In this document: piece after piece, positions 21,101 through 51,467 of the stretch
Layout: each line of letters begins with the position of its first letter
Position numbering within the stretch: the first letter of the stretch is position 1
Assembly (NCBI RefSeq): GCF_037042905.1
Contig: NC_087245.1
Location: 23,500,001 to 23,564,000, forward strand
Origin: Lytechinus pictus
Lineage: Eukaryota
DNA length: 64,000 bases
Reading direction: 5' to 3'
Position numbers and translations under genes: made by a program
Notes under the pieces: generated by a model
What the model was told of the DNA's origin: nothing
Databases searched by the model: none
Seen by the model: only the letters and a program-made list of their open reading frames with translations

Positions 21101-21442
21101 AGGGATCGTTTAACATTGTGAGAAGCTGATTTAAAAAATTCTCAAATTAAGATGAATTATGTTTATGAGTCTATGTACTTGTTCTAAGAAACCCTGGAAA
21201 TCATCTTTAGTTTGAATGAAAAGTTGTTAGTAGGTAGGAAAATGTGATTATATTAGAACTCGTCTACTAGACGATCTCCCAAATTACTGAGACATCCCGA
21301 TTTGAAAATAAAATTGTATGCCTCCCTCTGCGTTGAGATCGTAACGGACACGCAAGCGAGAACTGTCAATCAACCAACAGTGAATGGGGGCAAGGCCGCT
21401 CCGGTCGGCATGTAAACATTACATGCAGCGCATGTTCTCTGC
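21101..21442. mobile_element. Left part of a Kolobok-type element interrupted by the giant foldback
   Basis: TTAA|AGGGATCGTTTAACATTGTGAG terminus. A matching inverted terminus lies at 59550-59588 and a weaker candidate near 49690-49712. Confidence 0.55.
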
Positions 21443-21469
21443 TATGGGGCGCCAAGTGTCCGCCAGTGT

Positions 21470-22080
21470 ATTCCGTCCAAATCACGGCATTCCGTACACA
21501 AAATGTGTTTTTATTCAGACGAAAATCATTTCGTCATGACGCTTTTTTATTTCGTACACAAAATTTATTTTTTGTCACACAAAATCAATTTCGTCTCGAC
21601 GAAATGCACGAAATCAATTTCGTCTAGACGAAATGTAATTGCGTCCACAAAGTTTATTTGGCGTGCCATACGAAATGAATTTTTATCAAACGAAATGGCG
21701 CACCAAATGTCCGATGGTAAATTCCGTCCAATTCACGCAATTCCGTACACAAAATGTGTTTTTGTTCATATGAAAATCATTTCGTCATGACGCAGTTTTA
21801 TTTCGTATACGAAATTATTTTTTGTCACACAAAATCAATTTTCGTCGAGACTAAATGTAATTGCGTCCACAAAATTAATTTCGTTGCGATGCGAAAATCT
21901 ATTCCGTCGACGAAATCATTTTGTGTCAAAACCACAAAAAAATTTCGTTGACGAAATGATTTTGTGTCAAAACACAAAAAAATTTCGTCGACGAAATGAT
22001 TTTGTGTCAAAAGACAAAAAAATTTCGTCGACGAAATGATTTTGTGTTTTGAGTCTTTTTGACATAAAATCATTTCGTCT
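21470..22080. repeat. Left subterminal repeat domain of the giant element
   Basis: Duplicated block with ~250-bp period (ATTCCGTCCAA at ~21470 and ~21721), then ~38-bp units containing the palindrome TTTCGTCGACGAAA. Confidence 0.85.
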
Positions 22081-23384
22081 CCTCTGTCTCGAAGGGGACA
22101 TAAGAAGGTCGCTGATTGGCTGCACCTTGCTCAAGCTGTTTTCGCTCCGGGACGATCACACTTTTTCACAGCTCAGATTGGCATGTTGGTGAACTTATTA
22201 GCTTAGATTTCACGTTATTCATTCCTACATGAGCTGCATACAACTGCTCTAATCGGTAGGATGTGGACGGACATTGCATTCGTAAGTTCAGCTATGTTTT
22301 CGACTTCAAAATTACGTTGAAAAAAAAATGGGAATTCGTTAGTCGTTACCAAACTTGCATTTGCAAAAAGCTGTGTAACAATACTAGTCCCGTGTATTTA
22401 AGTTTATGTACTGTAGTCAGCAGACCATTGGGGGGGGGGTCTTTTCTGCACACCTAAAAAGTAAAATGGTTATGAATTATACAGGTTGAAGATATTTAGG
22501 CTTTGATCTTAATAAATAATGTAAAATTCATTCCGAGCAAAATGCTGAAAATTTCATTGAAATTGGATGACAACAAAAGTTATTGATGCCTGGCCGTACA
22601 TGCCGTATGAAACTCTAACGTTAGGCTACTCCACTCAGTGACTCACGCGTATTGCGAGGGTTAGTATTAGTATACTAACCTCGCACCATTAACCACGTTT
22701 GGCAATGGATTTCTAACTAGTGGGTCACGCGTGCTGTGATCCCACTTCTGGTGTCCACAACACACAACTTCTATTGCTTGATTTTTCTGTGCGCGGCGGC
22801 ATGTAATGAACCCTTGAGTGACTAGGCCTAAAAAACTCAGGCAATGGTTCGTATAGCCAGCCATTAAACACTCCACTATAGCCTATAGGTGAAGCGGAGG
22901 TAAGCAGTAGTGAAGTGTAGTGGAGCTTACACGAACCATCGCCTGCATGCTGTACTAGTATAGTTGTGGTAGCCTTGGCCCTGGCCCCACTCATTACTAG
23001 TTCGAGGTTAGTTGCTACATATAGACAGTTGCTACACTACAGTACATGTATTATTATAGACTATAGTACTAACCTCGTACACCGAACTGCATTTGGCCCT
23101 GGATTTCTGTGAAGTTGGCAAATATCGCTTCATTACAATACAGAATTAATATTTGCCGAAACTCCTCGCTACTCATCGGGGCGCTTTGCGGTGAGTAGCC
23201 ATAATACAAAAAGTCAATAGTATATTTTTAATTAAATCAAAATCATATTAAAAAAAAAGCAAATTTGATTACTTTGGAGTTTGGACTAGAAAGTGACTTC
23301 GCGTGTCTCTTCTTTTTACGCAAAGAAAAGGAAGCCTGATGGTGGCGCTAATAAATTTCACAGCCTTGATTCAGGCTCGCTTCA

Positions 23385-24223
23385 AATGCAGCTCCTCGGT
23401 AATTATGCCCCCGCAGACAAAGTCCGGAGGGGGCATAAAGCGTTGCCCCTGTCCGTTGATTCGCCCGCCCCCCACTCGGTTTCCGCACAATAAATCGAAA
23501 TATATTTCGATTTATATATATTGGTTAAAAAAAAATATGTTGTGTAGGTACATGACACCATAGTACAGGCTAACTTTGAATTCGGAGTCTGCAGGTCCAA
23601 GGTCACAGCTCATGAAATATCCGAGTTGGTTTCCGCATGATGACTTATGAAATATTCAACAGATTTATAAAATTAGGGTGTGTAGGTAGATGACACCATA
23701 TACAGGCTAAGTTCGGAGTCGGCAGGTCAAAGGTCACGGCTCATTAAATATGCAATTTAGTTTCCGCATGATTACTTATGAAATATTCTACATATTTAAC
23801 CGAATTTGAGTGTGTAGGTAGACGACACCAAAATACAGGTCAAGTTCGAATTCGTAGTCGGCAGGTCAAAGGTCACGGCTCATTAAATATGCAATTTAGT
23901 TTCCGCATGATTACTTATAAAATATTCTACATATTTAAACAAATTTGAGTGTGTAGGTAGATGATACCAATACAGGCTAAGTTCGAATTCGGAGTATGCA
24001 GGTCAAAGATCACAGCTCCTTAAAGATATCTTATGAAATATTCAACAGATTTTTTAAAAATTTGGGTGTGTAGGTAGATGATGATGATGATGATGCATAG
24101 CATTTTTACAGCGGCGTAACAGGGTTCGGTGGCCAGGGGGGGGGGGGGGCAAGAGCCAAAAATTTCCCGGTCATATCATGGTATGAATAGGCGTAATGGT
24201 GTAATAAGGCGACTATTTTGAGA
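23385..24223. repeat. Single left-arm copy of the unit amplified x4 in the right arm (HINE-like 5' end plus ~120-bp subrepeats)
   Basis: TTATGCCCCCGCAGACAAAGTCCGGAGGGGGCATAA head followed by tandem GCAGGTCAAAGGTCAC-containing units; reverse complement of the 44277-47228 units. Confidence 0.85.
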
Positions 24224-25735
24224 AGGCCAGAATTTATCTTTAAAAAAAGTTGCGAGCGAGCGAAGCGAGCGAGCAATTTTTTTTTAACCTTTTTAATACA
24301 AAAATCCAATTTTGTGATATATTTTGACATGATATCCAGATAATAAATTTATTCAATTCTTCTCTCTTTAGATTCCTTTTTTGTCACGGTGGTCTGTACG
24401 CCACTGTGAAGAGGATTCTTTGCGGCAGTAGCGTGAAGAGTAAAAAACAAAACAAAAAAACAACGAGGAGCGCAGTATAGAACATGTGCCAAAAGGCTGC
24501 TTTATATATATAAGTCCTGAGCGAGCGAAGCGAGCGAGAAAAAAAATCAACTTTTCATGAGAATCTAACTTTGAGCTATTTTTTTAACATATTCAGTAAT
24601 TAAAATCATATCCTACAATACTTTTCCAACAAAAAAGGAGGTAATTCCTCCTTTTTTTGTTCTTGGCTGTAGAACTTTTTGGGGCCATGGCCCAACCCTT
24701 CCATACGCAGTGCTGTGCGTTTGGGGTCCAGGGCAGAGCCCCAGGAACTTCTTGATATCAAAGCCATTTAAACCTTGCAGAAATCCCCAATTTTAATCAA
24801 ATCGCAGGCATAATATAGCTTTTACACAACACATTTATTCAACCCAGTTGCGTAATGAACCAAATATTTTGAGGGGGCAAAACATAGAAATGTGGGAAAA
24901 ATTTGTAAAAAGTCGCCAGTGTGCAAAGCGAGCTGGAAAAAATTGCCTATTGAAATTACAATCTAATTATGTGATAGATTTTTCCATTATATTCAGCAAA
25001 TAACACATTTCATTGTTTCCATTCATTTCATTATACGTCATGCACGTTGTCTCCTATAAAATTTCTTTTATATCCTCTTGGGTGTGGAACCACGACCCCC
25101 CCCCCCCCCCCCGCCTGTATGGCAGTGATTGAACGTGATTGAACGGGGGCGTTATAGAGCCATTTGAAGATTATAAATGAAGAGCCCCTACTTTGTGGGG
25201 TCTGGGGCAAAGCCCCGGTAGCTTATTTGCATAAAATTTAGAAAACTTATAACACAATGTTGTATGCAGTCCATCTTTCTTCCCGCTCTTTAATTTCAAT
25301 CATCAGCAGCCCGGTCGTGTTATATTTTTTCTTGTTCCTTTTCTTTGTTTTCTAATTTAGCTCTTGACTAATTACATTCTACCTTCGTTTCCCGCTATTG
25401 TTTGCCATTTTGTCATCTTTTAATTTATTTCCCACCGTGCTATTGCATTACATAGGCCCTTTTCTCAATGATTTGTTCTTTTTCAAATGTAAATTCTATC
25501 GTACATTTTCCCGCTTTCCTCCCTTTTCTACTAAAAACAGTTTTTTCTTCATTGTCTTTTTCCTTTTCTCTTTCCATTTCCCTTTCCTCCTTTCCTTTTC
25601 CCCTTTCCTTCCCCTTTCCCTTTCTTTCTCCCTCCTTTTTTTCTTTTTCCCGTTTTTTTTATTTTCCCGGTGAAATCCGCCAGGGGGGGGGGCAACTTGC
25701 CCCCCCCTGCCCCCCCCCCGCCTGTTACGCCACTG
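24109..25735. mobile_element. hAT-type MITE shared by both arms (left copy)
   Basis: CAGCGGCGTAACAGG...CCTGTTACGCCACTG; 8-bp TSD CATTTTTA / CATTTCTA; mirror copy at 42784-44388. Confidence 0.85.
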
Positions 25736-26025
25736 CATTTCTATAGCACCATATATCTGTCAAAGACATTCAAAGGCATATTGGAGGAGCCAGCCAATCT
25801 GGGTCGCCTACAAGGGCGCGCACACAGAACTGTGACCCGCAGGTCTCTCCTCCCGATAACTGGTTGGGGGAATGCAGGTGGACCACTACACAGGGTCATT
25901 TAATATGCGAGTTGGTATCCTCATAATAACTTATAAAATTTCAACAGATTTTTTAAAAATTTGGTGTTTAGATAGATGACACCATAATACATGCAAATGA
26001 GCCTCGAAATTCGAAAATTATAATA

Positions 26026-26610
26026 TTAAAGCAATATTGACTGGCCTCGGGGCGATACGACATATATCGCCCAAACTAGATTTATATCGCCCGAGTCGTA
26101 GACGAGGGTGATATCAATTTAGTGATGGCGATATATGTCCTTTCGCCCCCAGGCCAGTCAATATTGCTATTATTAACCAAATCAGAAATCTAGAGCAAAA
26201 ATCGTTAAAATTTAGATGTTTTAAATTTTTAGAATGAGAATCTACTTTCTCATGTTGAGCAGACTGGGCCTCTGAACTTTACCATTGTGACGTAGGTGAA
26301 ATGACGCGTCCCTGCATGGCCAGGCCGCAGTATCCAGCGTTGTCTCAACTTGATTACCATTATGACGTATAGCACTGCGCGGTTCAAGGACGCGTACAAC
26401 TTAACAACGCGTAGAATACCCGGATGTTAGCGCTGCCTTTTATTGCCCGCTACATTTCCACGCATTTTCTCATTGACTTTTCTGAGCGGGCAATAAATTG
26501 GGCCCGTGGATAAACAATTGGAATTTTATTGACCGGCCATTTGATCCCAGTCTTAAGCAGGCAACAATGTTTCAAAGTTGCCCTGCTCAGATGTCTGATA
26601 CGGTTAATAA
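26026..26610. mobile_element. Left-arm-specific element with an internal region complementary to both termini
   Basis: Absent at the mirror site (~40660). 26143-26167 is complementary to the left end (26031-26055) and the adjacent 26171-26186 is complementary to the right end (26594-26609). Confidence 0.7.
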
Positions 26611-27424
26611 TACATAATAATTCATGGAAAATGAATTATATTGCACACAAGTGGGATAAATCATTCAATAGTAATTGTAATGCACAGAATTATAACAAGT
26701 GTTGGTAAAACATCACAAAACCATTCATTTTAAAGTAGTAAAATAATTGAATTGACAAAGATTCTACCACTTCAGGCCATCCATAATTTGACTCATACTC
26801 GTTGCTTTCAGACCCTTATCAAGATTTTGATAAATTCTCTCTCTAATATATGCATAGAGTTTATAAAATCGTGTGTTTCGGTATCTAAAGAGTTTATTCA
26901 TGATGATAATATTTTGATGGTGTTTGGAATCCTAAAAACCTGTATAATTATCATCATTTTAGGAAGAAAGCCTGTATGGTTTACTTAAACTATTCAAATT
27001 TGATATCTGGGGATACCCATCTCAATGTCCACATACATGTGATTATTTTTTGTCATGAAATGAATTACTGATAATTTCATTTCCTCAGCAATTTAATGCC
27101 CATGTCTGCATGTTTGAGTATGTTTTATGCATATTTCGCCACTGCTATTATTTTGATAGGATGTATTTCCAAATTCATCACAATAATTGTAAGTTTTATC
27201 ATAATTTTACTTTTTGAAAATTATGCTATTTTTGTTCCACCAATAGTATCAATATGACGATATCAATGGATTCTAGTTAATCCTTTTGGGTAAGATTGGA
27301 ACTAACTCTGTGTTTAATAGATAAAGATATATGACTAACTTGTCCAGGTAATGAGAAATGGGCCCCTGCTGAGTAGGCCTAGAGTTTTTATGCCCCCGCA
27401 GACGAAGCCCGGAAGGGGCATTAA

Positions 27425-28198
27425 CCCTAAAATGGCCGGGGGGGGGTTGAATCAACCCCCCCCCCCCTCAACATTTTCTGCGATCATTCCGCCGCGCGAA
27501 ATTTTTTGACCGCGCCACTCACATAGTTTATACTTTTAAGTCTCGCGCATCTTTTGAGACCAAATTTAAGACCCCCGGGTACGCGGTTCCGAAATTACGC
27601 AACATTTTGTAAGTGCATGTCAGACCAAAAATTGTTCCAAAACGTGATTTAGTGTACAAAGTCAATGCAAATTGAGTTTTCTCATCTTATTCATAAAGAT
27701 ATGATTATTTTTACTTTATACAGCTGAAAGCAATTGATTTTAGCATAATTATGCTTCAAAAAAGTTGTGCAATAAATCTGGTGAAAAAAACAAAGAAAAA
27801 CAAAAGGTTGAAAAACAAAGAAATACATAAGAAATTCATAAAACAATAAAATACATAGGAAATTGATTTCCAAACCGAAGTTTTTTTCAATTGCCATTGT
27901 TAAGAATGCTACAAAGAATATTTTTTACCAAAAATTAGCATTCTAGGAGCTTTATTTAGTGAATTAGAGCAAAAAGTATGATTTATGCATAAATTAGCAT
28001 AATTAATTCATATAAAATGAAATCTCATTATTTTGGAAAATTTTACCATACAGCCTTGTAGATTACATCGCACACTACCAGCGTGCAAATTTTTGCGGCG
28101 CTCGCGCGATCGGCGGCTGAGAACTCAGGGGGGGGGTTGAATCAACCCCCCCCCCCCCCCGGCCACAGAACAGCCAAAAAAGCCCGGCCTAGTTAGGG
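27425..28198. mobile_element. piggyBac-type MITE, left-arm-specific
   Basis: TTAA|CCCTAAAATGGCCGGG ... CCCGGCCTAGTTAGGG|TTAA; the right arm has a single TTAA empty site (~39455). Confidence 0.9.
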
Positions 28199-28468
28199 TT
28201 AAGCGTTGCCCCTGTCCGTCCCCCCACTTGGTTTCTGCGCAATAACTCGAAAAATATTTAATGGATTTAAAAAAAATTTGGTGTGTAGGTAGATGACCAC
28301 AAAATACAGGCTAAGTTCGAATTCGGTGTACGCAGGTCAAAGGTCACATCTCATTATATATGCAAGTCGGTTCAAAGGTCTAAATTTGTTAATTAATTAT
28401 ATATATGCATATTGGTTTCTGCATGATATTAAGTTCAAACATATTGAATGGATTTCTGATCGCGTTAA

Positions 28469-29056
28469 AGGGGAATCCAGCCTTGGCCATTAAATGTTGT
28501 GTTGGGAAGGAGAAAAATAAATTAAACAGAATGGTGAAAGTTTGAAAGAAATCGGACAAGCAATAAGAAAGTTATAGCTGCTTTAAAATTGAGATCACTA
28601 ATACTATGTAGATTTCAAATTGGCAACTGGATAAGTAAATTATGACAAGGGCAAGGACAACTTTCCCATAGGCCATGTACTTTATTATCAGGGATTAGTG
28701 GTTTTCTCCTAAGTACCCATTCCCCTGGGGCATTAATCTAAATATAACCCAGGTAGTATATTGTTTTATGTCCTCATGAAAGAAAAATATTAATTTGAAA
28801 TAAAACTTTTGGGAAAAAAAAATCACATTTTCGACATAATATGAATTGGAGTACATGGAAGAGTAGTCCTTGCCTTACATCCCATATGCAGCCAATTTGA
28901 AGTCTCCATGGGTACAGTGATTACCAATATTTACAACTTTTAAAAATTCATAACTTTCTTGTTGTTTGTCCAATATTGTTCAAACTTTCACCTATCAACT
29001 TGTCTGATTTTTCTTTTCCTTATAAAAACAATTTTTTATTTGGGTTGGATTCCCCT
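28469..29056. mobile_element. Kolobok-type MITE, family B, left-arm-specific
   Basis: TTAA|AGGGGAATCCAGCC ... GGTTGGATTCCCCT|TTAA; empty TTAA site in the right arm (~39188); near-identical copy at 55516-56110 in the opposite orientation. Confidence 0.9.
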
Positions 29057-29146
29057 TTAAGCGGGGGCATCCGTGTCCTTTGGACACGTCAAATTTTCTT
29101 AATCATGTGTAATTGATTTTATGACATGTGTTTACATTTGCTGCAG

Positions 29147-29356
29147 ATTCCCATTCAGCCGTTGGACTGAACCTGTACTGTCTGTAACACAGTATGGATG
29201 GTCAATATGAAGCGAGCTTCATTGAATTCCTCCAAGAGCTCTGTACTCCGTTCTGATCATTTTGAAGATGGTTGCTTTGACAGGACTGGGCAAGTGACTC
29301 GTCTTAGACAGGATGCTGTCCCAACCATGTTTGATTTCCTGCCTCGTCTTCAGAAG
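29147..29356 (+). pseudogene. THAP zinc-finger exon (decayed), left arm
   Basis: Bounded by CAG| and |GT. Encodes FPFSR..[frameshift]..VWMVNMKRASLNSSKSSVLRSDHFEDGCFDRTGQVTRLRQDAVPTMFDFLPRLQK, with the THAP FP, W, (C)SxHF and AVPTxF motifs. The zinc-ligand Cys reads Arg (CGT). Confidence 0.85.
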
Positions 29357-29574
29357 GTACAGTAGATCTATATCATACATGTGTTCTAAAGAAATATTTT
29401 CTCTGTATTATCTACCTTTGGTTTGATAGAACATTGCTTTAAATATTCCATTTTCAGTAGCCAAATAGAGATGAAAATTATCCTATTTGGGAGGGTAACC
29501 ATGGACCTGGGCCTATACTGTGTATTTACAGTAAACTCTTACTAAATGAACAAATATATTAAAAATTTGGTTTA

Positions 29575-30956
29575 CCCTACATAATAATCCTGGGCTACTT
29601 TGAGATTGCATAGCCCGGGGGGGGGGCCTTTTTGGTCCCCCTCTTCAGATCTCCATGCACTGTCGATCGCAACGAAAACCGATGCACACGTCACCATCAA
29701 TGTAATCTGCAAGCATGGAGCTCGACATTTTTCACGATAAATCCGTCGCGCGAATTTTTTTGACCGCGTCACTCGTTGACTTTTTACTTTCAAGTCTTGC
29801 GCAACTTTTGAGACCAAAATTGTGACCCCCAGGTACAGGGTTCCGAAATTACGCAAAATTTCGTAACTGCATGCAGAACCAAAATTGCTCAAAAACGTGT
29901 ATTTGTGTACAAATCCAATGCAAGTAGTGTTTTTAGCCAAAATTTATAAAATGTATAATATTTTTCCTTTAACTGCTCAAAATCAATTAATTTTATCTTG
30001 TTTATGATAAAAAAAAACGTCTCCGACAATTTCCATTGAAAAAACCATAAAAAACAAAAAGTCGAAAAACACAGAAATACATAAGAAATTTAGAAAACAA
30101 TAAAATACATAAAAAATGAATGTGATGTTGACAACTTTTTTAAAGATTAATTTAATCAGATGCCTATAAAGAGTAAGTGAAACAAAAATGAGCATTTTAG
30201 GGGCATTATTTTGTTAATTAGAGCAAACTTATGATTTTACGCATTAATTAACATAGCAATGAGCAATGAGATTTTTCGCAGATTTTGATATTATGGTATT
30301 GTAGATAATGCCATGGGTAACGCGCGTGCCAATTTTCGTCGCGATTGCGAGATCAACGGCCGAGATCATAAGGGGGGCTGAATCAGCCCCCCCCCCCCCC
30401 GTCTTCTTAGGCATCGAAATAGCCCAGTCTATTTAGGGTTAAAGATAAATCCCTAAATAATTCCCCAAATTCTATGATTTCTAAACAAATGTGCTCCTGA
30501 AGAAATGGTAAATCTAATTTCTACTTTTATGTATTTTATTGCATGGTTCTATAATTCCATACGTATTTCTTTGTTTTGGGGCCTTATGTATTTTATAGTT
30601 TTTTTTCAATGGGATCACTTCGTGGCACTATTCCAATTATAAAAAGCAAGATTTGATTATTTTCAACCAATTAGTGCAAGAATAATGATGCATTTGTCAA
30701 TTATGACTGAAAATAGAATTTCCATTGGATTAAATATGTATACAAAATAATATTTTTGAGCAATTTTCGGTCCAACATGAACTCATAAAATGTTGCGTAA
30801 CTGCGTATCTGGGCGTCTCGAATTTTGTCTAAAAGCTCTGCGAGAATTGAACGAAAAAAAAAATGGTGGTACCTCGTTTCTCATTGTGGACTTATCGTGA
30901 AAAATGTGGATGGGGGGGCTTATTAAGCCCCCCCCCCCCCCCGGGGCTAGATAGGG
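29575..30956. mobile_element. piggyBac-type MITE shared by both arms (left copy), intronic to the THAP pseudogene
   Basis: TTTA|CCCTA ... ATAGGG|TTAA; mirror copy at 37103-38675. Confidence 0.7.
29723..30438. mobile_element. One-ended piggyBac-type MITE nested in the left arm
   Basis: Ends ...TATTTAGGG|TTAA; body similar to 27425-28198; replaces ~90 bp that are present in the right arm (~38440-38530). Confidence 0.7.
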
Positions 30957-31147
30957 TTAATATATCATCATGAATATTTAAAAAAACATTTATTTTGTTG
31001 CAAGTCACTGGAAAAGGTTTGATTTCTAAATAAATATTATTCTTCATGCATTATCGAATATTTAATTGAAAAATTTAAAGTTATCTTTTCATTCTTGTAT
31101 CTGTTTTTGTTCAATATTTTTTTTTTAAATTCATTCGTCTCGTACAG

Positions 31148-31380
31148 AATTCACCAAACCAAGGAATTCCCCGAAAGAAAGATGTTTTGATTCAGCAAAC
31201 AACCTCCCAGATACTGCAAAGACACCTGTACCAAAGTCTTCAGCACCTTTATTTCTCAAGGACCACTCCTACTCAATATCAGAAAGTCCAAGAGGGGTAA
31301 AGTGGAAGTTAACAGCAATAATGGACTGTATTAAGAACTTGGAGAAGAGGCTGAAAACCACACACGAGAAGTCCCGCCGT
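31148..31380 (+). pseudogene. Downstream exon of the THAP gene: HCF-binding motif plus coiled coil (decayed), left arm
   Basis: Follows a CAG acceptor. One frame reads FTKPRNSPKER...FLKDHSYSISESPRGVKWKLTAIMDCIKNLEKRLKTTHEKSRR. DHSY fits the [D/E]HxY motif followed by a coiled coil, as in THAP proteins. Out of phase by 1 nt with the previous exon. Confidence 0.75.
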
Positions 31381-31664
31381 GTACATTACTTGCTCTTAAG
31401 TTTGGACAAACATAACTTGCAAAACTTTACAACAAATAATTACCCCAATGTGCATTCTGATTATTTAAAATAGCTCAATGAAAATGTTTATCAGTGGGCA
31501 TGTAACAAAAGTGAATTCATTAAATTTGAACGTGTTGCAAAAATGATGTCTTACAGTATATTCATTCTGACTTAGAATGTCAGAAGAAAAAAAGTTTGTG
31601 AAAAGTAGGAATGACGGCAAGATGACAGAAGAATAGAACAGGATAGAGCAAGGGGGACAGATAA

Positions 31665-32266
31665 AGGACAAGTCCACCCCAAAAATTGTTGATATGAATA
31701 AAAAGAGAAAAATCCAACAAGCATATAACACTGAAAATTTGATAAAAAATCGGATGTAAAATAAGAAAGTTATGACATTTAAAAATTTTGCTAAATTTTA
31801 CAAAAGAGTTATATGCACATTCTGTACACAGTCGGTATGCAAATGAGGAGACTGATGACGTCATCCACTCACTATTTCATTTGATATATAGAATAAGGTA
31901 TATTCTAATTTTCTCCTTGTCATGTTAAACAAAATTTTATTCCTCCCTGATCATGTGGAATTAGCATTATTCAATACTTTTTTGGTTCAGTAAAGTTTGT
32001 CCTTATGGTAAAATCTGTAAAAAATGAAATATTGTATAATTCAAACAATAAAAAACAAAATAAACAGTGAGTGAGGGACATTATCGACTGTCTCATTTGC
32101 ATGTCACTGAGTTGTGAATATTTTTGTTTTGTGAAAAATAAGTGAAAATTTAAAATGCCATAACTTTCTTAGTTTACATCCGATTTTGATGAAATTTGCA
32201 GCGTTATGCTAGTTCGATTTTTCTCAATTTAACTGAACCAACAATTTTCTTGGGTAGACTTGACCT
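31665..32266. mobile_element. Kolobok-type MITE, family A, left-arm-specific
   Basis: AGGACAAGTCCACCCC...GGGTAGACTTGACCT; absent at the mirror site (~36395). Confidence 0.85.
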
Positions 32267-38675: not shown

Positions 38676-38895
38676 TAAACCAAATTTTTAATATATATTT
38701 GTTCATTTAGTAAGAGTTTACTGTAAATACACTGTAAAGGCCCAGGTCCATGGTTAGCCTCCCAAATAGGATAATTTTCATCTCTATTTGGCTACTGAAA
38801 ATGGAATATTTAAAGCAATGTTCTATCAAACCAAAGGTAGATAATACAGAGAAAATATTTCTTTAGAACACATGTATGATATAGATCTACTCTAC

Positions 38896-39101: not shown

Positions 39102-39519
39102 CTGCAGCAAATGTAAACACATGTCATAAAATCAATTACACATAATTAAGAAAATTTGACGTGTCCAAAGGACACAGATGCCCCCGCTTAACGCGATCAG
39201 AAATCCATTCAATATGATTGAACTTAATATCATGCAGAAACCAATATGCATATATATATAATTAACAAATTTAGACCTTTGAACCGACTTACATATATAA
39301 TGAGATGTGACCTTTGACCTGCGGACTCCGAATTCGAACTTATCCTGTATTTTGTGGTCATCTACCTACACACGAAATTTTTTTTTAATCCATTAAATAT
39401 TTTTCGAGTTATTGCGCGGAAACCAAGTGGGGGGGGGACGGACAGGGGCAACGCTTAATGCCCCCTCTGGGCTTCGTCTGTGGGGGCATAAAAACTCTAG
39501 GCCTACATGTACTCAGCAG

Positions 39520-40897: not shown

Positions 40898-42783
40898 CAG
40901 TCTACACAAGCAGAACCAAACAGAATCAGTTTGCCACACTCAAATTCCCAATTTGCGCTTGCATCAATTGTTTAGTTACATACCTTTCCCATTTATGATT
41001 ACAAAAAGTGCTTAAAATGACAATTTTTTAGGTCAGAATTTTTAGCTCGCGCTTCGTGTTCCCATTCTTGAAATATGTACCGTCTTCATGGGTAAACAGT
41101 CCTTAATAGGTCCCTTTTCGATCATGCTAGAACACTTGTTAAATATTCTGTTCATGCTTGGCATTCTCAGTAATTATCTAGTTACATACGCATCTTGTTC
41201 AGGATCACAAACAGTGCCCAGAATGTTAAATTTCAGGACAAAATAAATACATGAAAGTTCAAAAAAAGAAAGAAAAAAATATTCGCCTGCGCTTCGCGCT
41301 CGCACTTTTTATATAAGGCCTATGAGATTATTTCATATTGATGTTGCTTTATAAGAATAAAGCTAAGAAATGACTGATCGGGGAAAATATAGGTGAAGAT
41401 AATTTTGGGCCCCATCCCCTATTGGCGAAAGTCTGATACACCCTTGTGACACATACACACACAGAGAAAAAAATAGTGCCCCCCCCCCCTGAAAAAGCAA
41501 GGACCCCCCGGTGCCCCCCTCCCCAGAGAAATAATCCTAGCTACGCCACTGGACTGATTCCTTTATCCCCAAACCACTTATACAAGACAAGCTTATTTCT
41601 ATCCAGGATGTAAATCAGTTCTAGAAAGAGCAATCTGGAAATTTGCCTCTGGCAGGGCCTAGTAGGACACTATAGGTGTTTGATTTGATTGATTTTATTT
41701 CAGCATTTTTTCAACAGAAATAATTAACAAACATAATGTACAACATAAAGAAAAAAATAGTGATACATTTCTTTTTACAAAAATAAATACAAATAATCAT
41801 TCATTTGCAAAAATGTATATAGATAGTATTAGTTTGCAATATTATAAGTTGTACTTTGTACTTTGTTGACTAGACAAAAAAAAATGCTGGAGACCGTTAG
41901 TGTTAATAGGCCTAACGTTATTCCAATACCAACATGATTAAGGGATGCTCCAGGCTGAAGATATTCATAATTGATCATATCTCAAGAAATAGAGTAAAAT
42001 TCACAAAGAAAAATGCTGGAAATTTGATCAAAATCGGATAATAACAAAGTTGTTGAATTTAAAATATTTGCATTATTCCTGTAGATTTCTAGGCATACAT
42101 GAATATTCAGTGGGCAAAATGATGATGTCATAGTCATACCCCCACTTGTTATTTTGTATTTTGTATGAAATTAGGTTTATTAAAAAATTTCCTACAAGTC
42201 ACAATTGGATTGACAACATTTACACCAACTTATTTAATTATAATGGAGACATATCATTTACACATATGACAAAATGAAGCAATTATGATTTCGTGTACAA
42301 TAATAACTGTCAAGGAAAAGGAAAGTGGGGATGTGAAATCATCAGCCCACCTTATGAATATTCATGATGACAATTGTGACATAGACCTAGGGCTAGGCCA
42401 CTCAAGGGTTCATTACATGCCACCGTGAACCAGAAAATCAAGGCACAACGCATGCAACTCTCTTTATGAGCGGATCTCGCATATAGCCATTAGTTTTGAC
42501 CGACTCGATCCTAATTCGATCTTAGCCTGTATTATGGTGTCATCTATCTAAACACCCAATTTTTAAAAAATCTGTTGAAATTTTATAAGTTATTATGAGG
42601 ATACCAACTCGCATATTTAATGACCCTGTGTAGTGGTCCACCTGCATTCCCCCAACCAGTTATCGGGAGGAGAGACCTGCGGGTCACAGTTCTGTGTGCG
42701 CGCCCTTGTAGGCGACCCAGATTGGCTGGCTCCTCCAATATGCCTTTGAATGTCTTTGACAGATATATGGTGCTATAAAAATG

Positions 42784-44388
42784 CAGTGGCGTAACAGGCG
42801 AGGGGGCAAGTTGCCCCCCCTGGCGGATTTCACCGGGAAAATAAAAAAAAAAACGGGAAAAAGAAAAAAAGGAGGGAGAAAGAAAGGGAAAGGGGAAGGA
42901 AAGGGGAAAAGGAAAGGAGGAAAGGGAAATGGAAAGAGATGGGAAAAGAAAACGAAGAAAAAACTGTTTTTAGTAGAAAAGGGAGGAAAGCGGGAAAATG
43001 TACGATAGAATTAACATTTGAGAAAGAACAAATCATTGAGAAAAGGGCCTATGTAATGCAAAAGCACGGTGGGAAATAAATTAAATAAATTAAATAAATT
43101 AAAAGATGACAAAATGGCAAACAATAGCGGGAAACGAATGTAGAATGTAATTAGTCAAGAGCTAAATTAGAAAACAAAGAAAAGGAACAAGAAAAAAAAT
43201 AACACGACCGGGCTGCTGATGATTGAAATTAAAGAGCGGGAAGAAAGATGGACTGCATACAACATTGTGCTATAAGCTTTCTAAATTTTATGCAAATAAG
43301 CTACCGGGGCTTTGCCCCAGACCCCACACAGTAGGGGCTCTTCATTTATAATCTTCAAATGGCTCTATAACGCCCCCGTTCAATCACTGCCATACAGGCG
43401 GGGGGGGGGGGGTCGTGGTTCCACACCCAATAGGATATAAAATAAATTTTATAGGAGACAACGTACATGACGTATAATGAAATGAATGGAAACAATGAAT
43501 TGTGTTATTTGCTGAATATAATGGAAAAATCTAGCACATAATTAGATTTTAATTTCAATAGGCAATTTTTTCCAGCTCGCTTTGCACGCTGGCGACTTTT
43601 TACAAATTTTCCCACATTTCTATGTTTTGCCCCGTCAAAATATTTGGTTCATTACGCAACTGGGTTGAATAAATGTGTTGTGTAAAAGCTATATTATGCC
43701 CGCGATTTGATTAAAATTGGGGAAATCTGCAAGGTTTAAATGGCTTTAATATCAAGAAGTTCCTGGGGCTCTGCCATGGACCCCAAGCGCACAGCACTGC
43801 GTATGGAAGGGTTGGGCCATGGCCCCCAAAAGTTCTACAGCCAAGAACAAAAAAAGGAGGAATTGCCTCCTTTTTTGTTGGAAAAGTATTGTAGGATATG
43901 ATTTTAATTACTGAATATGTTAAAAAATAGCTCAAAGTTATATTCTCATGAAAAGTTGATTTTTTTTCTCGCTCGCTTCGCTCGCTCAGGACTTATATAT
44001 ATATATAAAGCAGCCTTTTGGCAAATGTTCTATACTGCGCCCCTCGTTGTTTTTTTGTTTTGTTTTTTACTCTTCACGCTACTGCCGCAAAGAATCCTCT
44101 TCACAGTGGCGTACAGACCACCGTGACAAAAAAGGAATCTAAAGAGAGAAGAATTAAATAAATTTATTATCTGGATATCATGTCAAAATCTATCACAAAA
44201 TTGGATTTTTGTATTAAAAAGGTAAAAAAAAATTGCTCGCTCGCTCGCAACTTTTTTTAAAGATAAGTTCTGGCCTTCTCAAAATAGTCGCCTTACTACA
44301 CCATTACGCCTATTCATAACATGATATGACCGGGAAATTTTTGGCTCTTGCCCCCCCCCCCTGGCCACCGAACCCTGTTACGCCGCTG
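42784..44388. mobile_element. hAT-type MITE shared by both arms (right copy)
   Basis: Reverse complement of 24109-25735; TSD TAAAAATG on both sides. Confidence 0.85.
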
Positions 44389-47228
44389 TAAAAATGCTGT
44401 GCATCATCATCATCATCATCTACCTACACACCCAAATTTTTTAAAAATCTGTTGAATATTTCATAAGATATCTTTAAGGAGCTGTGATCTTTGACCTGCA
44501 TACTCCGAATTCGAACTTAGCCTGTATTGGTATCATCTACCTACACACTCAAATTTGTTTAAATATGTAGAATATTTCATAAGTAATCATGCGGAAACTA
44601 AATTGCATATTTAATGAGCCGTGACCTTTGACCTGCCGACTCCGAACTTAGCCTGTATTTGGTGTCATCTACCTACACACCATAATTTTTATAAATCTGT
44701 TGAATATTTCATAAGTCATCATGCGAAAACCAACTGGGATATTTCATGAGCTGTGACCTTGGACCTGCAGACTCCGAATTCAAAGTTAGCCTGTACTATG
44801 GTGTCATGTACCTACACACCAACATTTTTTTTAATCAATATATATAAATCGAAATATATTTCGATTTATTGCGCGGAAACCAAGTGGGGGGGGGGGGGGC
44901 GGGGGAATCAACGGACAGGGGCAACGCTTAATGCCCCCTCCGGACTTTGTCTGCGGGGGCATAATTACCGAGGAGCTGCATTTCTCAAAATAGTCGCCTT
45001 ATTACACCATTACGCCTATTCATACCATGATATGACCGGGAAATTTTTGGCTCTTGCCCCCCCCCCCCCCTGGCCACCGAACCCTGTTACGCCGCTGTAA
45101 AAATGCTGTGCATCATCATCATCATCTACCTACACACCCAAATTTTTTTTTAATCTGTTGAATATTTCATAAGATATCTTTAAGGAGCTGTGATCTTTGA
45201 CCTGCATACTCCGAATTCGAACTTAGCCTGTATTGGTATCATCTACCTACACACTCAAATTTGTTTAAATATGTAGAATATTTTATAAGTAATCATGCGG
45301 AAACTAAATTGCATATTTAATGAGCCGTGACCTTTGACCTACCGACTACGAATTCGAACTTAACCTGTATTTTGGTGTCATCTAACTACACACTCAAATT
45401 CGTTTAAATATTTAGAATATTTCATAAGTCATCATGCGAAAACCAACTCAGATATTTCATGAGCTGTGACCTTGGACCTGCAGACTCCGAATTCAAAGTT
45501 AGCCTGTACTATGGTGTCATGTACCTACACACCAAAATTTTTTTAATCAATATATATAAATCGAAATATATTTCGATTTATTGCGCGGAAACCAAGTGGG
45601 GGGGGCGGGCGAATCAACGCTTAATGCCCCCTCCGGACTTTGTCTGCGGGGGCATAATTACCGAGGAGCTGCATTTCTCAAAATAGTCGCCTTATTACAC
45701 CATTACGCCTATTCATACCATGATATGACCGGGAAATTTTTGGCTCTTGCCCCCCCCCCCCCCCCGGCCACCGAACCCTGTTATGCCGCTGTAAAAATGC
45801 TGTGCATCATCATCATCATCTACCTACACACCCAAATTTTTTTTTAATCTGTTGAATATTTCATAAGATATCTTTAAGGAGCTGTGATCTTTGACCTGCA
45901 TACTCCGAATTCGAACTTAGCCTGTATTGGTATCATCTACCTACACACTCAAATTTGTTTAAATATGTAGAATATTTTATAAGTAATCATGCGGAAACTA
46001 AATTACATATTTAATGAGCCGTGACCTTTGACCTGCCGACTACGAATTCGAACTTAACCTGTATTTTGGTGTCATCTACCTACACACTCAAATTCGTTTA
46101 AATATTTAGAATATTTCATAAGTAATCATGCGGAAACTAAATTGCATATTTAATGAGCCGTGACCTTTGACCTGCCGACTCCGAACTTAGCCTGTATTTG
46201 GTGTCATCTACCTACACACCATAATTTTTATAAATCTGTTGAATATTTCATAAGTCATCATGCGAAAACCAACTGGGATATTTCATGAGCTGTGACCTTG
46301 GACCTGCAGACTCCGAATTCAAAGTTAGCCTGTGCTATGGTGTCATGTACCTACACACCAAATTTTTTTTAAATCAATATATATAAATCGAAATATATTT
46401 CGATTTATTGCGCGGAAACCAAGTGGGGGGGGGCGGGTGAATCAACGGACAGGGGCAACGCTTAATGCCCCCTCCAGACTTTGTCTGCGGGGGCATAATT
46501 GCCAAGGAGCTGCATTTCTCAAAATAGTCGCCTTATTACACCATTACGCCTATTCATACCATGATATGACCGGGAAATTTTTGGCTCTTGCCCCCCCCCC
46601 CCCCCCTGGCCACCGAACCCTGTTACGCCGCTGTAAAAATACTGTGCATCATCATCATCTACCTACACACCCAAATTTTTTAAAAATCTGTTGAATATTT
46701 CATAAGATATCTTTAAGGAGCTGTGATCTTTGACCTGCATACTCCGAATTCGAACTTAGCCTGTATTGGTATCATCGACCTACACACTCAAATTTGTTTA
46801 AATATGTAGAATATTTTTTAAGTAATCATGCGGAAACTAAATTGCATATTTAATGAGCCGTGACCTTTGACCTGCCGACTACGAATTCGAACTTAACCTG
46901 TATTTTGGTGTCATCTACCTACACACTCAAATTCGTTTAAATATGTAGAATATTTCATAAGTCATCATGTGGAAACCAACTCGGATATTTCATGAGCTGT
47001 GACCTTGGACCTGCAGACTCCGAATTCAAAGTTAGCCTGTACTATGGTATGGTGTCATGTACCTACACACCAAATTTTTTTTTAATCAATATATATAAAT
47101 CGAAATATATTTCGATTTATTGCGCGGAAACCAAGTGGGGGGGGGCGGGCGAATCAACGGACAGGGGCAACGCTTAATGCCCCCTCCGGACTTTGTCTGC
47201 GGGGGCACAATTACCGAGGAGCTGCATT
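44277..47228. repeat. Higher-order tandem array: 4 units of ~706, 693, 841 and 712 bp, each with ~120-bp subrepeats
   Basis: Units start TCTCAAAATAGTCGCC at 44277, 44983, 45676 and 46517, and end ...AGGAGCTGCATT. Confidence 0.92.
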
Positions 47229-48486
47229 TGAAGCGAGCCTGAATCAAGGCTGTGAAATTTATTAGCGCCACCATCTGGCTTCCTTTTATTTGCGTAAAAA
47301 GAAGAGACACGCGAAGTCACTTTCTACTTCTAGTCCAAACTCCAAAGTAATCAAATTTGCTTTTTTTTAAATATGATTTTGATTTAATTAAAAATATACT
47401 ATTGACTTTTTGTATTATGGCTACTCACCGCAAAGCGCCCCGGTGAGTAGCGAGGAGTTTCGGCAAATATTAATTATGTATTGTAATGAAGCGATGTTTG
47501 CCAACTTCACAGAAATCCAGGGCCAAATGCAGTTCGGTGTACGAGGTTAGTACTAGACTATAGATCTATACATGTACTGTAGCAATCTGTAGCAATATGT
47601 AGCAACTAACCTCGAACTAGTAATGAGTGGGGCCAGGGCCAGTACCACAACTATAGTACAGCAGGCGATGGTTCGTGTAAGCTCCACTACACTTCACTAC
47701 TGCTAACCTCCGCTTCACCTGGCTATATATACGAACCATCGCCTGAGTTTTTTAGGCCTAGTCACTCAAGGGTTCATTACATGCCGCCGCGCACAGAAAA
47801 ATCAAGCAATAGAAGTTGTGTGTTGTGGACACCAGAAGTGGGATCACAGCACGCGTGACCCACTAGTTAGAAATCCATTGCCAAACGTGGTTAATGGTGC
47901 GAGGTTAGTATACTAATAGTACTAACCTCGCAATACGCGTGAGTCACTGAGTGGAGTAGCCTAACGTTAGACTTAGAGTTTCATACGGCATGTACGGCCA
48001 GGCATCAATAACTTTTGTTGTCATCCAATTTCAATGAAATTTTCAGCATTTTGCTCGAAATGAATTTTACATTAATTATTAAGATCAAAGCCTAAATATC
48101 TTCAACCTGTATAATTCATAACCATTTTACTTTTTAGGTTTGCAGAAAAGACCAACCCCCCCCTCCCCCCCCCCCCCATGGTCTGCTGACTACAGTACAT
48201 AAACTTAAATACACGGGACTAGTATTGTTACACAGCTTTTTGCAAATGCAAGTTTGGTAACGACTAACGAATTCCCATTTTTTTTTCAACGTAATTTTGA
48301 AGTCGAAAACATAGCTGAACTTACGAATGCAATGTCCGTGAATAACGTGAAATCTAAGCTAATAAGTTCACCAACATGCCAATCTGAGCTGTGAAAGTGT
48401 GAAAAAGTGTGATCGTCCCGGAGCGAAAACAGCTTGAGTAAGGTGCAGCCAATCAGCGACCTTCTTATGTCCCCTTCGAGACAGAG

Positions 48487-49075
48487 GAGACGAAATGATT
48501 TTATGTCAAAAAGACTCAAAACACAAAATCATTTCGTCGACGAAATTTTTTTGTCTTTTGACACAAAATCATTTCGTCGACGAAATTTTTTTGTGTTTTT
48601 ACACAAAATCATTTCGTCGACGAAATTTTTTTGTGTTTTGACACACAATCATTTCGTCAACGAAATTTTTTTGTGGTTTTGACACAAAATGATTTCGTCG
48701 ACGGAATAGATTTTGTGTGACAAAAAATAATTTCATATACGAAATAAGACTGCGTCATGACGAAATGATTTTCATATGAACAAAAACACATTTTGTGTAC
48801 GGAATTGCGTGAATTGGACGGAATTTACCATCGGTCATTTGGTGCGCCATTTCGTTTGATAAAAATTCATTTCGTATGGCACGCCAAATAAACTTTGTGG
48901 ACGCAATTACATTTCGTCTAGACGAAATTGATTTCGTGCATTTCGTCGAGACGAAATTGATTTTGTGTGACAAAAAATAAATTTTGTGTACGAAATAAAA
49001 AAGCGTCATGACGAAATGATTTTCGTCTGAATAAAAACACATTTTGTGTACGGAATGCCGTGATTTGGACGGAAT
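48487..49075. repeat. Right subterminal repeat domain of the giant element
   Basis: Reverse complement of 21470-22080, with one more ~38-bp unit and a short deletion. Confidence 0.85.
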
Positions 49076-51467
49076 ACACTGGCGGACACTTGGCGCCCCA
49101 TACTCTGCTGGCTCGTTTCTATAGTGCCTTGACGGTTCTAGTCGCAGCAGAGAAAGTAGTATGAAAGAAGAAAAACAGATTCTGATAGCGCAACGAAAGA
49201 TATGTGCAGACCATCTAAGATAAGAAAAATGCAGACTTACTGACTCCTCGCCGGGATGGTAGTAACGTGGCAAATTTGGGGCGATGTACTTTAATATTAC
49301 ATGAAGATAAAGCGAAAGTGTAGCACCAGAATAAAATATGTGCGATCCAGAACATCATACATGTACTTGAGAATAGAATAAGAACATGTGGTCTCTCGAG
49401 CTCTGCGTGTGTCGTGAGCTGAGGCATGGACCATGGCTAGCTGAGGGAAGGATGGCTTTATCCCATGCGTGAACGTTTCGTTGTTTATGTGGGTATGCAA
49501 ATGACTTGGTATTACGTAAGACTCTTCCCATATCGCTCGAAAAATGAACATAATACAGGACATTCATTTTTAATTGTGCAGTCACATGATTATAACATTT
49601 CATTTATTCAAGACTGTTTCTCTAATGGGCCGAGCACCTTTTTGAGAGCAGTAATCAAAACTTGTGTAGTAAATCTGCCATATTTTACTCACGTATACAC
49701 TCCCTTCCTTTGAACGCGAGGTCCTTTCTTCTTCTTCTTTTGCTTGACAAATTTTTGGCGAAATACCTTTAGATTGTAAATTTTTAGATGAAAACCTTTT
49801 TTTTTTCTTTTTTTTTTCTTTTCAAAATTTTCTCATGAATTGTGCCTCCTCCCATTAGAAAAACCTGGATCCACCCCTGCACAACGTAAAGCTGTCCCCC
49901 CCCCCCTCCAACACATAACTGCACAGCCCAACAACCAATGTAACGAACATTTTTATAATAATTATATAAAAAGATTTGGTGCAGCATAAAATATATAAAA
50001 TATAAAGGTATATGCTGGGGATAAAAAGGACATAAAAATAATTGCATTATTCTGTGGCCGGTGGCGAAAGCATAAAAATATTAGATTCTGGATTGGCGGT
50101 GTTCCGGCGGTGTTGAAGCATGATCTTCCGCCGCCAGTGCCAGAATGTATATTTTTACGTACTTCGGGGGGGGGGGGGGGGGTAAGAAATATTTCCATCC
50201 ACATTTCTTCCACATCGGCTGATAAATGCTTAATTATTATCATTTAGGGGGGGGGTGTCCCATGCAACTAAAGTCTGAATTTTTAAGTACATCGTAGCTT
50301 TATTCTTACAATCATGGACCTACTATGGCCTAAATTAATGATGCGAGCGCGAAGCGCGCACGGTAATGTTTATTTTTATATTTCGCCTTGAAAAGAAATA
50401 TAGGAGCGCGAACTTTTTTATGAACATGAACATCTTAAACGGGTCATTCTACTCACTTTTGGTAATCACGCAGGGTATGTTCATCGATTTGATTTATTGT
50501 TCTCGTAAATGCGTATTAGCATTTTCATAACAAAAGAAACATAATATCGTTTAAAATTTTGGCATGAATAATAGAGTGTACTTATTAAAAATATGATTCA
50601 ACCCACACACACCAAATGATCCACACCCAACATATTATGATATTAACAATTAGCAGGATCGAGGATTGTCATTATAAGCACATTGCTTGGAAAAAAATAA
50701 CTGAAAACCCGAGATTCAAACTTATTAAATTGCATTGATTATACAACAGAATGGTGCGAGCGCGGAGCACAAAGAACGAGTTGAAAATTATTAATATTTT
50801 GACATGAAGAGCTGAATCGGGTCATTCTAATCAAATACGGTCTTATGGTAAGTATAAAGTTTATACGCCAAGCGAGCTGATATTTGTTGAAATTAAGATC
50901 TTAATACGAAACATTGTATAAACTGTTTTGGAATATTGCTGCATATTTTCCTGAATAATGATAATAATGTAAAACGCAAGCTGATTTTTTTTAAAGTATA
51001 TTCGCGATTGATTTTTTTTGTATAATGATTTCTACTTTTTCTGTTTTCAAATCGTTCATCTTTTCTTATTTCATTCACTTTTCTTCTTCTTATATCCTTT
51101 CTTATCGTTCCTCTCTATTTCCCCTTTCTCTAGGCATAGATAGCAAAGCCCCAAGAAACTCCAGAATCCTGAGACGTCCAGATGGTATTTTGTACAAAAA
51201 AATGAAGTCACCAATCTAAAAATGTCACTTTAATCCGATTTTAAAAAATGTGGAAAGACACATGCAGGGTTCGGCAACAGGGCATATAAAGTTTAGGAAT
51301 AAAATAGAGAAATGCGAGTAAACGCAAAGAGTTGAATTTGAAAAGTTTTTCGATTTTATATTAACATCCTACATTTTTATTTCAATAGCATGTTCGTGAT
51401 ATTACTTATAACCCCTTATAACATTGCATTATGAAGGGTTATATATAGATATTCCCGTGATGCACAT

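Follow-up and report, generated by a model that had tools for sequence, protein, structure and literature searches.

The 64,000-nucleotide stretch of Lytechinus pictus DNA analyzed here (hereafter, the window) contains a long inverted structure with the same hexamer on both flanks. The questions raised by this locus are whether the structure moved as one unit, what kind of element it represents, and how its two arms came to resemble each other. Our preferred interpretation, to which we assign a probability of roughly 0.8, is that the structure is a foldback-type, non-autonomous derivative of an IS3EU/GingerRoot DNA transposon and that this copy inserted recently.

Boundaries, arms and passengers

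The features of the locus are compiled in Table 1. The element begins with TATGGGGCGCC and ends with GGCGCCCCATA, and CTCTGC flanks it on both sides; both the termini and the duplicated hexamer named in the preliminary description can be read in the sequence. The interval 21437–49108 given there holds as the outer limits, but is too wide for the element proper because both duplications were counted in. A random match of two 6-mers at the GC content found here has p ~3.6e-4. The outermost 267 bp of the two ends are an exact inverted match, and the left end contains recurring TTTCGTC/GACGAAA motifs together with 29/40-bp tandem units, which are putative transposase-binding sites. The insertion interrupts a multi-copy host repeat. 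The element is missing from 36 of the 39 other copies of this repeat, with matches to the left and right flanks that overlap by exactly 6 bp, and the two empty copies viewed in full sequence contain one CTCTGC each.

Table 1. Coordinates of the element, its parts and its surroundings in the window
Feature	Position	Strand	Remark
Host repeat, left half	21243–21442	+	multi-copy, interrupted by insertion
Left target-site duplication CTCTGC	21437–21442		single hexamer in empty paralogous sites
Whole element	21443–49102		27,660 bp, without transposase coding
Left arm	21443–33225	+	7,995 bases pair with right arm
Left IS3EU-type end	21443–22080	+	first 267 bp exactly inverted to right end; also in smaller relatives
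Passenger repeat, left-only	26027–26610		584 bp; arm alignment
Passenger element at TTAA site, left-only	27425–28202		arm alignment
Passenger element with TTAA ends, left-only	28465–29060		second copy at 55512–56114
THAP zinc-finger pseudo-exon	29147–29356	+	reads inward; PF05485, E 4e-07
Passenger repeat, left-only	29722–30435		arm alignment
Left-arm stretch copied into right arm	30265–30941	+	in 12 of 15 copies, not in window copy
Probable downstream exon of same THAP gene	31148–31473	+	mirror near 36633–36895
Palindromic passenger repeat, left-only	31662–32269		relatives at 14753–15363 and 63377–63991
Innermost, oldest paired stratum	32272–33225, mate 35477–36393	+	cross-copy comparison
Central spacer, in register with long arms	33226–35476		~2.25 kb; 32 genomic copies at >=88%
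Old 1.4-kb element inside spacer	33540–34942		own degenerate inverted ends (66% over 248 bp)
Small 78% inverted repeat	34929–35669		34929–35134 and 35476–35669, 341-bp spacer
Right arm	35477–49102	-	global alignment
Right-only insert	37460–38288		163-bp tandem units
Mirror THAP pseudo-exon	38896–39101	-	PF05485, E 4.5e-06
Right-only insert	39710–40071		362 bp
Right-only segment	40699–42530		1.8 kb, partly a genome-wide repeat
Three extra tandem copies, right arm	44296–46971		~700 bp each, of 139-bp-unit repeat block
Right IS3EU-type end	48489–49102	-	mirror of left end
Right target-site duplication CTCTGC	49103–49108		read from sequence
Host repeat, right half	49103–49302	+	

The element had been described as a near-perfect hairpin, with 99% of its length in arms of about 13.6 kb each around a loop of about 340 bp. 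None of the three statements is borne out. A global alignment of the left against the right arm pairs no more than 7,995 bases on each side, corresponding to 58% of the element, and the mean substitution divergence between paired bases is 3.7%. The unpaired remainder consists of arm-specific insertions, deletions and tandem duplications of 0.36–1.8 kb. Divergence rises from 0.8% at the outer ends to 12–15% at the center (successive 1-kb bins of the left arm: 0.8, 1.1, 2.7, 2.3, 2.2, 3.6 and 4.9% for bins 1–7, and 3.0, 2.8, 5.8, 3.9, 12.0 and 15.1% for bins 8–13). The long arms end at 33225 and 35477, leaving a spacer of ~2.25 kb; the presumed loop belongs to the small inverted repeat, which exists because 33033–33428 is directly duplicated at 34953–35323. 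Across copies, the left and right versions of the innermost stratum differ by 18%, compared to 0.37% between left and 0.85% between right versions. The terminal inverted repeats (TIRs) may have grown, as had been proposed; uneven homogenization of one old inverted duplication would fit equally well.

Most passenger repeats occupy one arm only and are, therefore, not mirrored cargo, a term of the preliminary description that applies to the THAP fragment. When 40 of the 1,158 candidates were scored, the junction of the 26027–26610 repeat was found only in the window copy and its sister on C31. The presence of a gene fragment, as proposed, is supported by the Pfam matches to a THAP pseudo-exon in each arm, both of which are frameshifted and lack the third zinc-ligand Cys when compared with a relative at locus L052. 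The segment 31148–31473 has no Pfam match; we take it to be a further exon of the THAP gene, given a DHSY motif and a coiled-coil-like stretch. The open reading frame (ORF) adjoining the L052 relative, for which a Pfam scan likewise gave no match, presumably resembles Harbinger transposases, suggesting that the THAP fragment is cargo. A protein search with the THAP relative as the query found nothing.

A family of copies and a transposase-bearing relative

Siblings with different 6-bp duplications, proposed earlier as a check on transposition, were indeed found. There are 87 termini with at most one mismatch to the terminal 22-mer, some of them unpaired, and none for the reversed control. Among the 31 terminus pairs more than 20 kb apart, 30 are flanked by an exact 6-bp duplication, with 30 different hexamers, and the remaining one (C17c) has one mismatch. 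The 31 pairs include the 64-kb C20 pair, a diverged deletion derivative, and a C14 element with a duplicated right end that was counted once; the 91.7-kb C2 pair lies outside this count and is unlikely to be a single element. An exact duplication is missing from the C2 pair and from the 1,174-bp C3, 3.3-kb C13 and 4.5-kb C4 pairs. The large pairs have a median length of 26.6 kb, and the family amounts to about thirty copies and 0.92 Mb. The window copy was read end to end and the siblings over 1.6 kb per end and 10 kb of the center. The same spacer is present at 97–99.9% identity in 14 of the 15 sibling centers, and the same asymmetric layout recurs on at least 15 contigs with different duplications. 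The C31 sister differs from the window copy by 6 substitutions in 9,985 bases (0.06%), in different flanks and with a different duplication. Thus, the element moves as a complete unit, with duplication of 6 bp at the target site; the earlier claim of transposition as one unit is substantiated by the sibling duplications, the empty host-repeat sites and the C31 sister. We found no description of this family in published papers, although it may have a Repbase or Dfam entry, and Rfam gave no match.

The TATGG...CCATA termini match the TAYGG..CCRTA definition of IS3EU/GingerRoot, and the 6-bp duplication of that group is present in 30 of the 31 large pairs. No match was obtained with tblastn for 26 family proteins against the window and the sibling centers, and no transposase Pfam match was obtained in the 115 frames scanned out of 145 with at least 55 aa. 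Because no transposase is encoded, only non-autonomous membership in IS3EU/GingerRoot is possible. The lack of a transposase catalytic domain reported previously was upheld by both searches. A related element on C15 (16,651 bp, duplication ATCTAA) shares 113 of 120 terminal bases with the giant element and carries a PF24764 transposase core with D-32-E spacing and two frameshifts. By eye, its three catalytic motifs match those of IS3EU-1_CVi_1p (a row in the supplement of PMC10045372); judged by Pfam and this row, the C15 enzyme appears to be of the IS3EU/GingerRoot type. This relative strengthens the earlier assignment of the ends to IS3EU. An autonomous partner had also been envisaged: the C15 element has almost identical ends and carries a transposase, but its enzyme is frameshifted.

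No intact close copy of this transposase was found in the assembly. The C11 copy (92% similar) has one deletion and one insertion, the C4 copies (~75%) have many stops, and intact-looking cores elsewhere are only 39–45% identical. No transposase was detected in five small relatives (3.3–5.8 kb) or in the first 4 kb of the C20 pair. A PF00665 scan, in which 150 of 932 candidates were scored, revealed none linked to the ends of the giant element; most matches fell in long open frames of the kind usual for retroelement integrases. A HECT scan gave no match inside any family member.

The arms exchange sequence without crossover

A site was taken as diagnostic if none of the three old-type right arms matched the left consensus there. 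In the remaining 12 right arms, the left allele is present at all 11 such sites in 30626–30903 and at 0 of 11 in 31335–31622. In addition, the right arms of six of the seven siblings tested contain the left-only piece 30265–30435 in truncated form. The left-to-right conversion tract also brought in part of a left-only insertion. Private variants are present on both arms of a single copy in C12, C19b and the window/C31 pair. Tracts could also have been donated by an arm of another copy. The private tract of C19b has no private allele in common with its own left arm, and of the 16 doubleton variants among the paired ends only 2 fall within one copy; the window/C31 sisters account for 11 of the remaining 14. 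Trees of the terminal 1.6 kb group by lineage, not by side, and inversion of the center by crossover was seen in none of nine informative copies (9/9). Taken together, the arms trade sequence without crossover, mostly near the ends and with no exchange detected at the center. Exchange being frequent near the ends and undetected centrally, the identity of the arms forms a gradient. The conversion tracts are datable by comparison of siblings.

An alternative, which we regard as unlikely, is that the gradient reflects stepwise building from the inside outward, or one event in which two copies of the same end fused, with strata frozen thereafter. The step-like strata (18%, 3–5% and ~1–2%) are compatible with such a history, as is the fact that the small relatives have two different ends and the giant element two alike; Galileo is proposed to lengthen its TIRs via recruited internal sequence (PMC3573991). 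However, the lineage-specific tracts and the private variants on both arms postdate the start of the family's spread, and the terminal trees also argue against frozen strata. Stepwise building can account for the origin of the arms, but not for the later exchanges.

Under the transposon interpretation that we prefer, an ancestor that had acquired part of a THAP gene along with repeat-rich DNA would long ago have become an inverted duplication, as the 18% divergence of the inner stratum suggests. An IS3EU-type enzyme acting in trans would bind the repeated terminal motifs and cut and paste the 22–32-kb unit. Exchange between the arms may occur by template-switch repair of breaks with synthesis-dependent annealing; one repair tract would have run on into the left-only insertion before rejoining at a short microhomology, so that more of the two arms became paired. 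Other transposons keep inserting into single arms and then travel along. A bolder version is that of a self-repairing palindrome, in which transposition triggers arm copying, the arms grow and mirror their insertions, and the element acts as a mobile template for long hairpin RNA, in effect a jumping small-RNA trap that silences the collected TE families and THAP-type targets. Conversion itself is observed; the coupling to transposition and the RNA role are hypothetical, and we consider the version as a whole doubtful. Most passengers are still in a single arm.

Other origins and relation to known elements

A composite transposon, in which two independent, opposite-facing medium elements mobilized the DNA between them in the manner of the foldback-flanked Ising TE, is very improbable. 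The arms are patchworks of interspersed repeats, unpaired termini exist, and foldback units of this kind figure in PMC6431247; yet neither the window nor the intervals between sibling ends contain an internal copy of the terminal 22-mer that faces inward, and the innermost stratum is not a free repeat because its 68 candidates are only about twice the family size. Even less credible is a Galileo/P-type foldback with the THAP fragment as the remnant of its own transposase. The THAP exon in both arms recalls Galileo, a long-TIR element of the P superfamily (PMC3573991), but Galileo makes a 7-bp duplication, compared to 6 bp with TA..TA ends here, an integrase-type transposase occurs in the family to which these ends belong, and the presumably Harbinger-like ORF beside the L052 relative suggests cargo. 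With only a broken THAP exon, no P-type catalytic domain and a duplication other than 7–8 bp, P-superfamily membership is refuted. Palindromes are a commonly known assembly error, but an artefact of mis-joined haplotypes or fold-back chimeric reads can practically be dismissed, given the 1–15% arm divergence with arm-specific insertions, the recurrence of the asymmetric layout on at least 15 contigs with different duplications, and flanks that rejoin into an intact host repeat.

Sex-chromosome palindromes are fixed and gene-bearing, with nearly identical large arms kept by non-crossover conversion. The giant element shares the large inverted arms homogenized in this way, but is mobile, gene-less and only partly homogenized. 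Polintons also make 6-bp duplications, with AG..CT ends. A Polinton/Maverick was rejected because the ends are TA..TA and no polymerase, integrase or capsid ORF is present in the window or the 15 sibling centers, and Teratorn because there is no coding content (neither piggyBac transposase nor herpesvirus genes) and the duplications vary freely. These elements likewise span tens of kb, Teratorn with long inverted repeats, but are gene-rich and virus-related (PMC6431247), unlike this palindrome family without an intact gene.

IS3EU/GingerRoot has in common with the giant element the TA..TA ends (for fungal IS3EU, TAYGG..CCRTA), the 6-bp duplication, an integrase-type DDE transposase (here in the relative only), and the carriage of gene fragments with loss of the transposase (PMC10045372, PMC12730594, PMC6839031). 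GingerRoot TIRs are 100–150 bp in elements of 3.9–12.9 kb, compared to ~8 kb per arm in a 27.7-kb element, and the mirrored cargo is a further difference. The long modular TIRs, internal repeats and non-coding middle are those of a foldback element. FB and Tetris also have long modular TIRs and a non-coding middle and are mobilized in trans, but the TIRs of Tetris reach 1,735 bp, its duplication is 8–10 bp, and it is assigned to Mutator (PMC4079207). The TIRs of Galileo in Drosophila mojavensis are likewise long and repetitive inside, and are longest where the copy is non-autonomous, but Galileo belongs to the P superfamily, with a 7-bp duplication and TIRs of at most 1,260 bp; for its TIRs, extension by recruitment of internal sequence through break repair and conversion was proposed (PMC3573991), whereas here single tracts are mappable across copies. 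The paired arms are ~4.6 times as long as the longest foldback TIR among the published systems compared. The element is a giant variant of non-autonomous IS3EU foldback elements, not a new kind of element.

Longer elements are held to be cut and pasted less efficiently (PMC6431247). Despite this penalty, a gene-less palindrome of 22–32 kb reached about thirty sites, and did so recently, with two copies only 0.06% apart. Such giant copies can seed inversions and mislead assemblers. The little-studied IS3EU group is now extended to a foldback form, and the family provides natural palindromes in replicate, whose conversion tracts can be mapped and put in order one by one, a direct test of the break-repair model proposed for long foldback TIRs.

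Structure and cargo of the palindrome

The preliminary description had reported the hexamer CTCTGC on both sides of the element, and it was indeed found there. The two ends match exactly in inverted orientation over their outer 267 bp. However, the near-perfect hairpin proposed at the same time, with arms making up about 99% of its length, was not recovered. In the arm-to-arm alignment, only 7,995 bases per arm (58% of the element) are paired, and the substitution divergence increases from 0.8–1.1% in the first 1.5 kb to 2–3% at 23–26 kb, 3–6% at 26–32 kb and, inside, a maximum of 12–15% at 32–33.2 kb. Sequence lacks a partner in the other arm where passenger repeats occupy one arm only, where there are deletions, and at a threefold duplication of 700 bp. 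Likewise, the supposed loop of ~340 bp is part of a small secondary inverted repeat, whereas the long arms stop at 33225 and 35477.

Features of the window (positions within the window)
Feature	Position	Length	Remarks
TSD CTCTGC	21437-21442 and 49103-49108		flanks the element
Element proper	21443-49102	27,660 bp	start TATGGGGCGCC, end GGCGCCCCATA
THAP exon	29147-29356, mirror 38896-39101		reads inward
Direct repeat	12356-13352 and 17431-18424	~1 kb	80% identical; left of the element
Inverted repeat	19403-20765	430 bp	78%; left of the element

THAP was the sole Pfam domain among the 115 scanned of 145 frames of at least 55 aa (the others are mostly right-arm mirrors), and tblastn with 26 IS3EU-type proteins gave no transposase match in the window or the sibling centres, in agreement with the reported absence of a transposase catalytic domain. 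The gene fragment previously suspected in the arms corresponds to the THAP exon, present once per arm; it is a pseudo-exon, because both copies are frameshifted and lack the third zinc-ligand cysteine, as judged against an 81%-similar relative at locus L052 (C5:48079400-48080900). The cargo is mirrored as far as THAP is concerned, but most passenger repeats are unpaired and confined to single arms. We take 31148-31473, with a DHSY motif, a coiled-coil-like stretch and no Pfam match, to be a probable further exon. At L052, the THAP exon looks intact and an ORF starts 300 bp later that presumably resembles Harbinger/HARBI1 transposase N-termini (no Pfam match); the locus may represent the source family of the cargo. 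A 164-aa frame at 54629-55123, which has no Pfam match at a threshold of E 0.001, resembles the C-terminal part of a LINE ORF for reverse transcriptase.

Transposition as one unit

In the eukaryotic assembly searched (811.7 Mb, 368 contigs), the terminal 22-mer has 87 matches with at most one mismatch, and the reversed control has none. Inward-facing termini more than 20 kb apart form 31 large pairs, with both flanks read, that span 22–64 kb, with a median of 26.6 kb and 924 kb in total. An exact 6-bp TSD flanks 30 of the 31, all hexamers being different, and the remaining one has a mismatch; among nine smaller or doubtful pairs, the TSD is exact in five and in four it is not. The siblings with other TSDs that had been suggested as a check therefore exist, and the claimed movement as one unit holds. 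Left-flank matches were found at 39 other copies of the host repeat interrupted by the element: at 36 of them the right flank follows on, the two matches overlapping by 6 bp; two are absent from the 40 scored right-flank matches, and one is irregular. Two of these paralogous copies, read directly, contain a single CTCTGC each, as anticipated for an empty site.

The window spacer recurs at 97–99.9% in 14 of the 15 sibling centres fetched. The copy on contig C31 has unrelated flanks and a different TSD, and does not differ from the window copy in the 1.6 kb at either end; 9,985 central bases contain 6 substitutions and 9 indels. The two have in common one passenger insertion absent from the other scored copies. 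Given this near-identity despite unrelated flanks, the latest transposition of the window/C31 lineage is very recent. An assembly artefact is ruled out by the sibling pairs with TSDs, the rejoined host repeat and the near-identical copy elsewhere. On C14, the right end plus TSD occurs twice, 3.6 kb apart (3124823 and 3128425), which reflects a local duplication that includes the edge of the element.

Probable IS3EU/GingerRoot affiliation and a transposase-bearing relative

We took Pfam accession PF24764 to represent the IS3EU-type transposase core. A scan with it gave, among others, matches within a 16,651-bp element, C15:3400071-3416721 (loci L053 and L054), which has ~870-bp TIRs and the TSD ATCTAA and agrees with the window element at 113 of 120 terminal bases. 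This element is nested in a giant palindrome copy, at a site homologous to ATCTAA near window 26880 / 40380. The catalytic motifs of its transposase, whose relatives in the protein collection come from animals and fungi, match the row IS3EU-1_CVi_1p in the supplement of PMC10045372. IS3EU/GingerRoot is defined by TA..TA ends and a 6-bp TSD (PMC10045372, PMC6839031), with the end consensus TAYGG..CCRTA (PMC12730594). By its ends, TSD and the motifs of its relative, the giant element thus appears to be of this type, consistent with the IS3EU-like termini first noted. As for an autonomous partner, the C15 element bears a transposase gene, but with two frameshifts. The C11 relative, 92% similar, is likewise broken, and intact-looking cores are only 39–45% identical; no intact close copy was found in the assembly.

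Smaller non-autonomous relatives of 0.8–5.8 kb have ends in common with the giant element. A sister non-autonomous family of 5.2 kb (L047 and L048; C15:6878179-6883425, C6:20209686-20214955) has 1.2-kb TIRs and 6-bp TSDs; only 361 bp separate its C6 member from a copy of the giant element. At C4:22364000-22400000, dozens of tandem, stop-riddled transposase-core fragments, about 55–78% identical to the C15 copy, are found within 36 kb. Nearly identical PF24764 cores without stops occur as two pairs (C11:31942349 and C12:25431373; C13:6342779 and C19:4540528), which are candidate active IS3EU families; a HECT match lies 21 kb from the C13 core. Four related termini at C1:8006427-8013882, in the same orientation with ~2.48 kb spacing, suggest a tandem array of an end.

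Arm-to-arm conversion and probable mechanism

Compared across 11 left and 15 right arms, the innermost stratum (32290-32900) keeps the two sides fully apart, with divergences of 18.1% left-right, 0.37% left-left and 0.85% right-right. A genome-wide search gave 68 candidates for this sequence, roughly double the number of family members; within the limits of that search, the stratum is therefore an old part of the inverted duplication and does not stem from a common repeat that inserted twice. At 30620-31640, left-right divergence averages 2.75%, and is 4.5–4.6% in the window and C31 copies. A site was taken as diagnostic if the right arms of the old type, those of the window, C31 and C11, all depart there from the left consensus; twelve further sites at which only two of the three agree were set aside, and six are unique to the new type. 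In 30626-30903, the other 12 right arms have the left allele at every one of 11 diagnostic sites, and in 31335-31622 at none of 11, a conversion tract that accounts for the lower divergence of most copies. In six of seven siblings tested, the right arm also contains a truncated terminal piece (30265-30435) of an insertion otherwise seen in the left arm only, rejoined at a 3-bp microhomology, so the tract ran from left to right. The donor may have been the opposite arm of the same element or an arm of a different copy. A second tract is private to the C19b copy.

Over the terminal 1.6 kb, the two arms of a copy diverge by 0.06–2.5%, and arms group by lineage; private variants occur on both arms in C12, C19b and the window/C31 pair. 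Since a right-arm marker has not changed sides with respect to the spacer in any of 9 copies, the exchange is conversion without crossover. In a family relative at C8:27752725-27776821, both arms contain the marker, and the spacer gave no match.

The element transposes as a unit with a 6-bp TSD, lacks its own transposase, has ends in common with an IS3EU-type gene and undergoes arm conversion. It would be mobilised in trans via the repeated terminal motifs, and may have originated when a cargo-laden element was long ago duplicated in inverted orientation. Template-switch repair could have generated the tracts and the arm growth, in line with the break-repair type of TIR extension proposed for Galileo (PMC3573991). 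We assign this mechanism as a whole a probability of about 0.8. Searches of openly accessible papers found no account of this family. Foldback structures are thought to arise repeatedly through transposase loss and TIR elongation (PMC4079207). In the sources compared, TIRs reach 1,260 bp in Galileo and 1,735 bp in Tetris and measure 100–150 bp in GingerRoot; with ~8 kb paired per arm, this spreading 22–32-kb family is well outside these TIR lengths.
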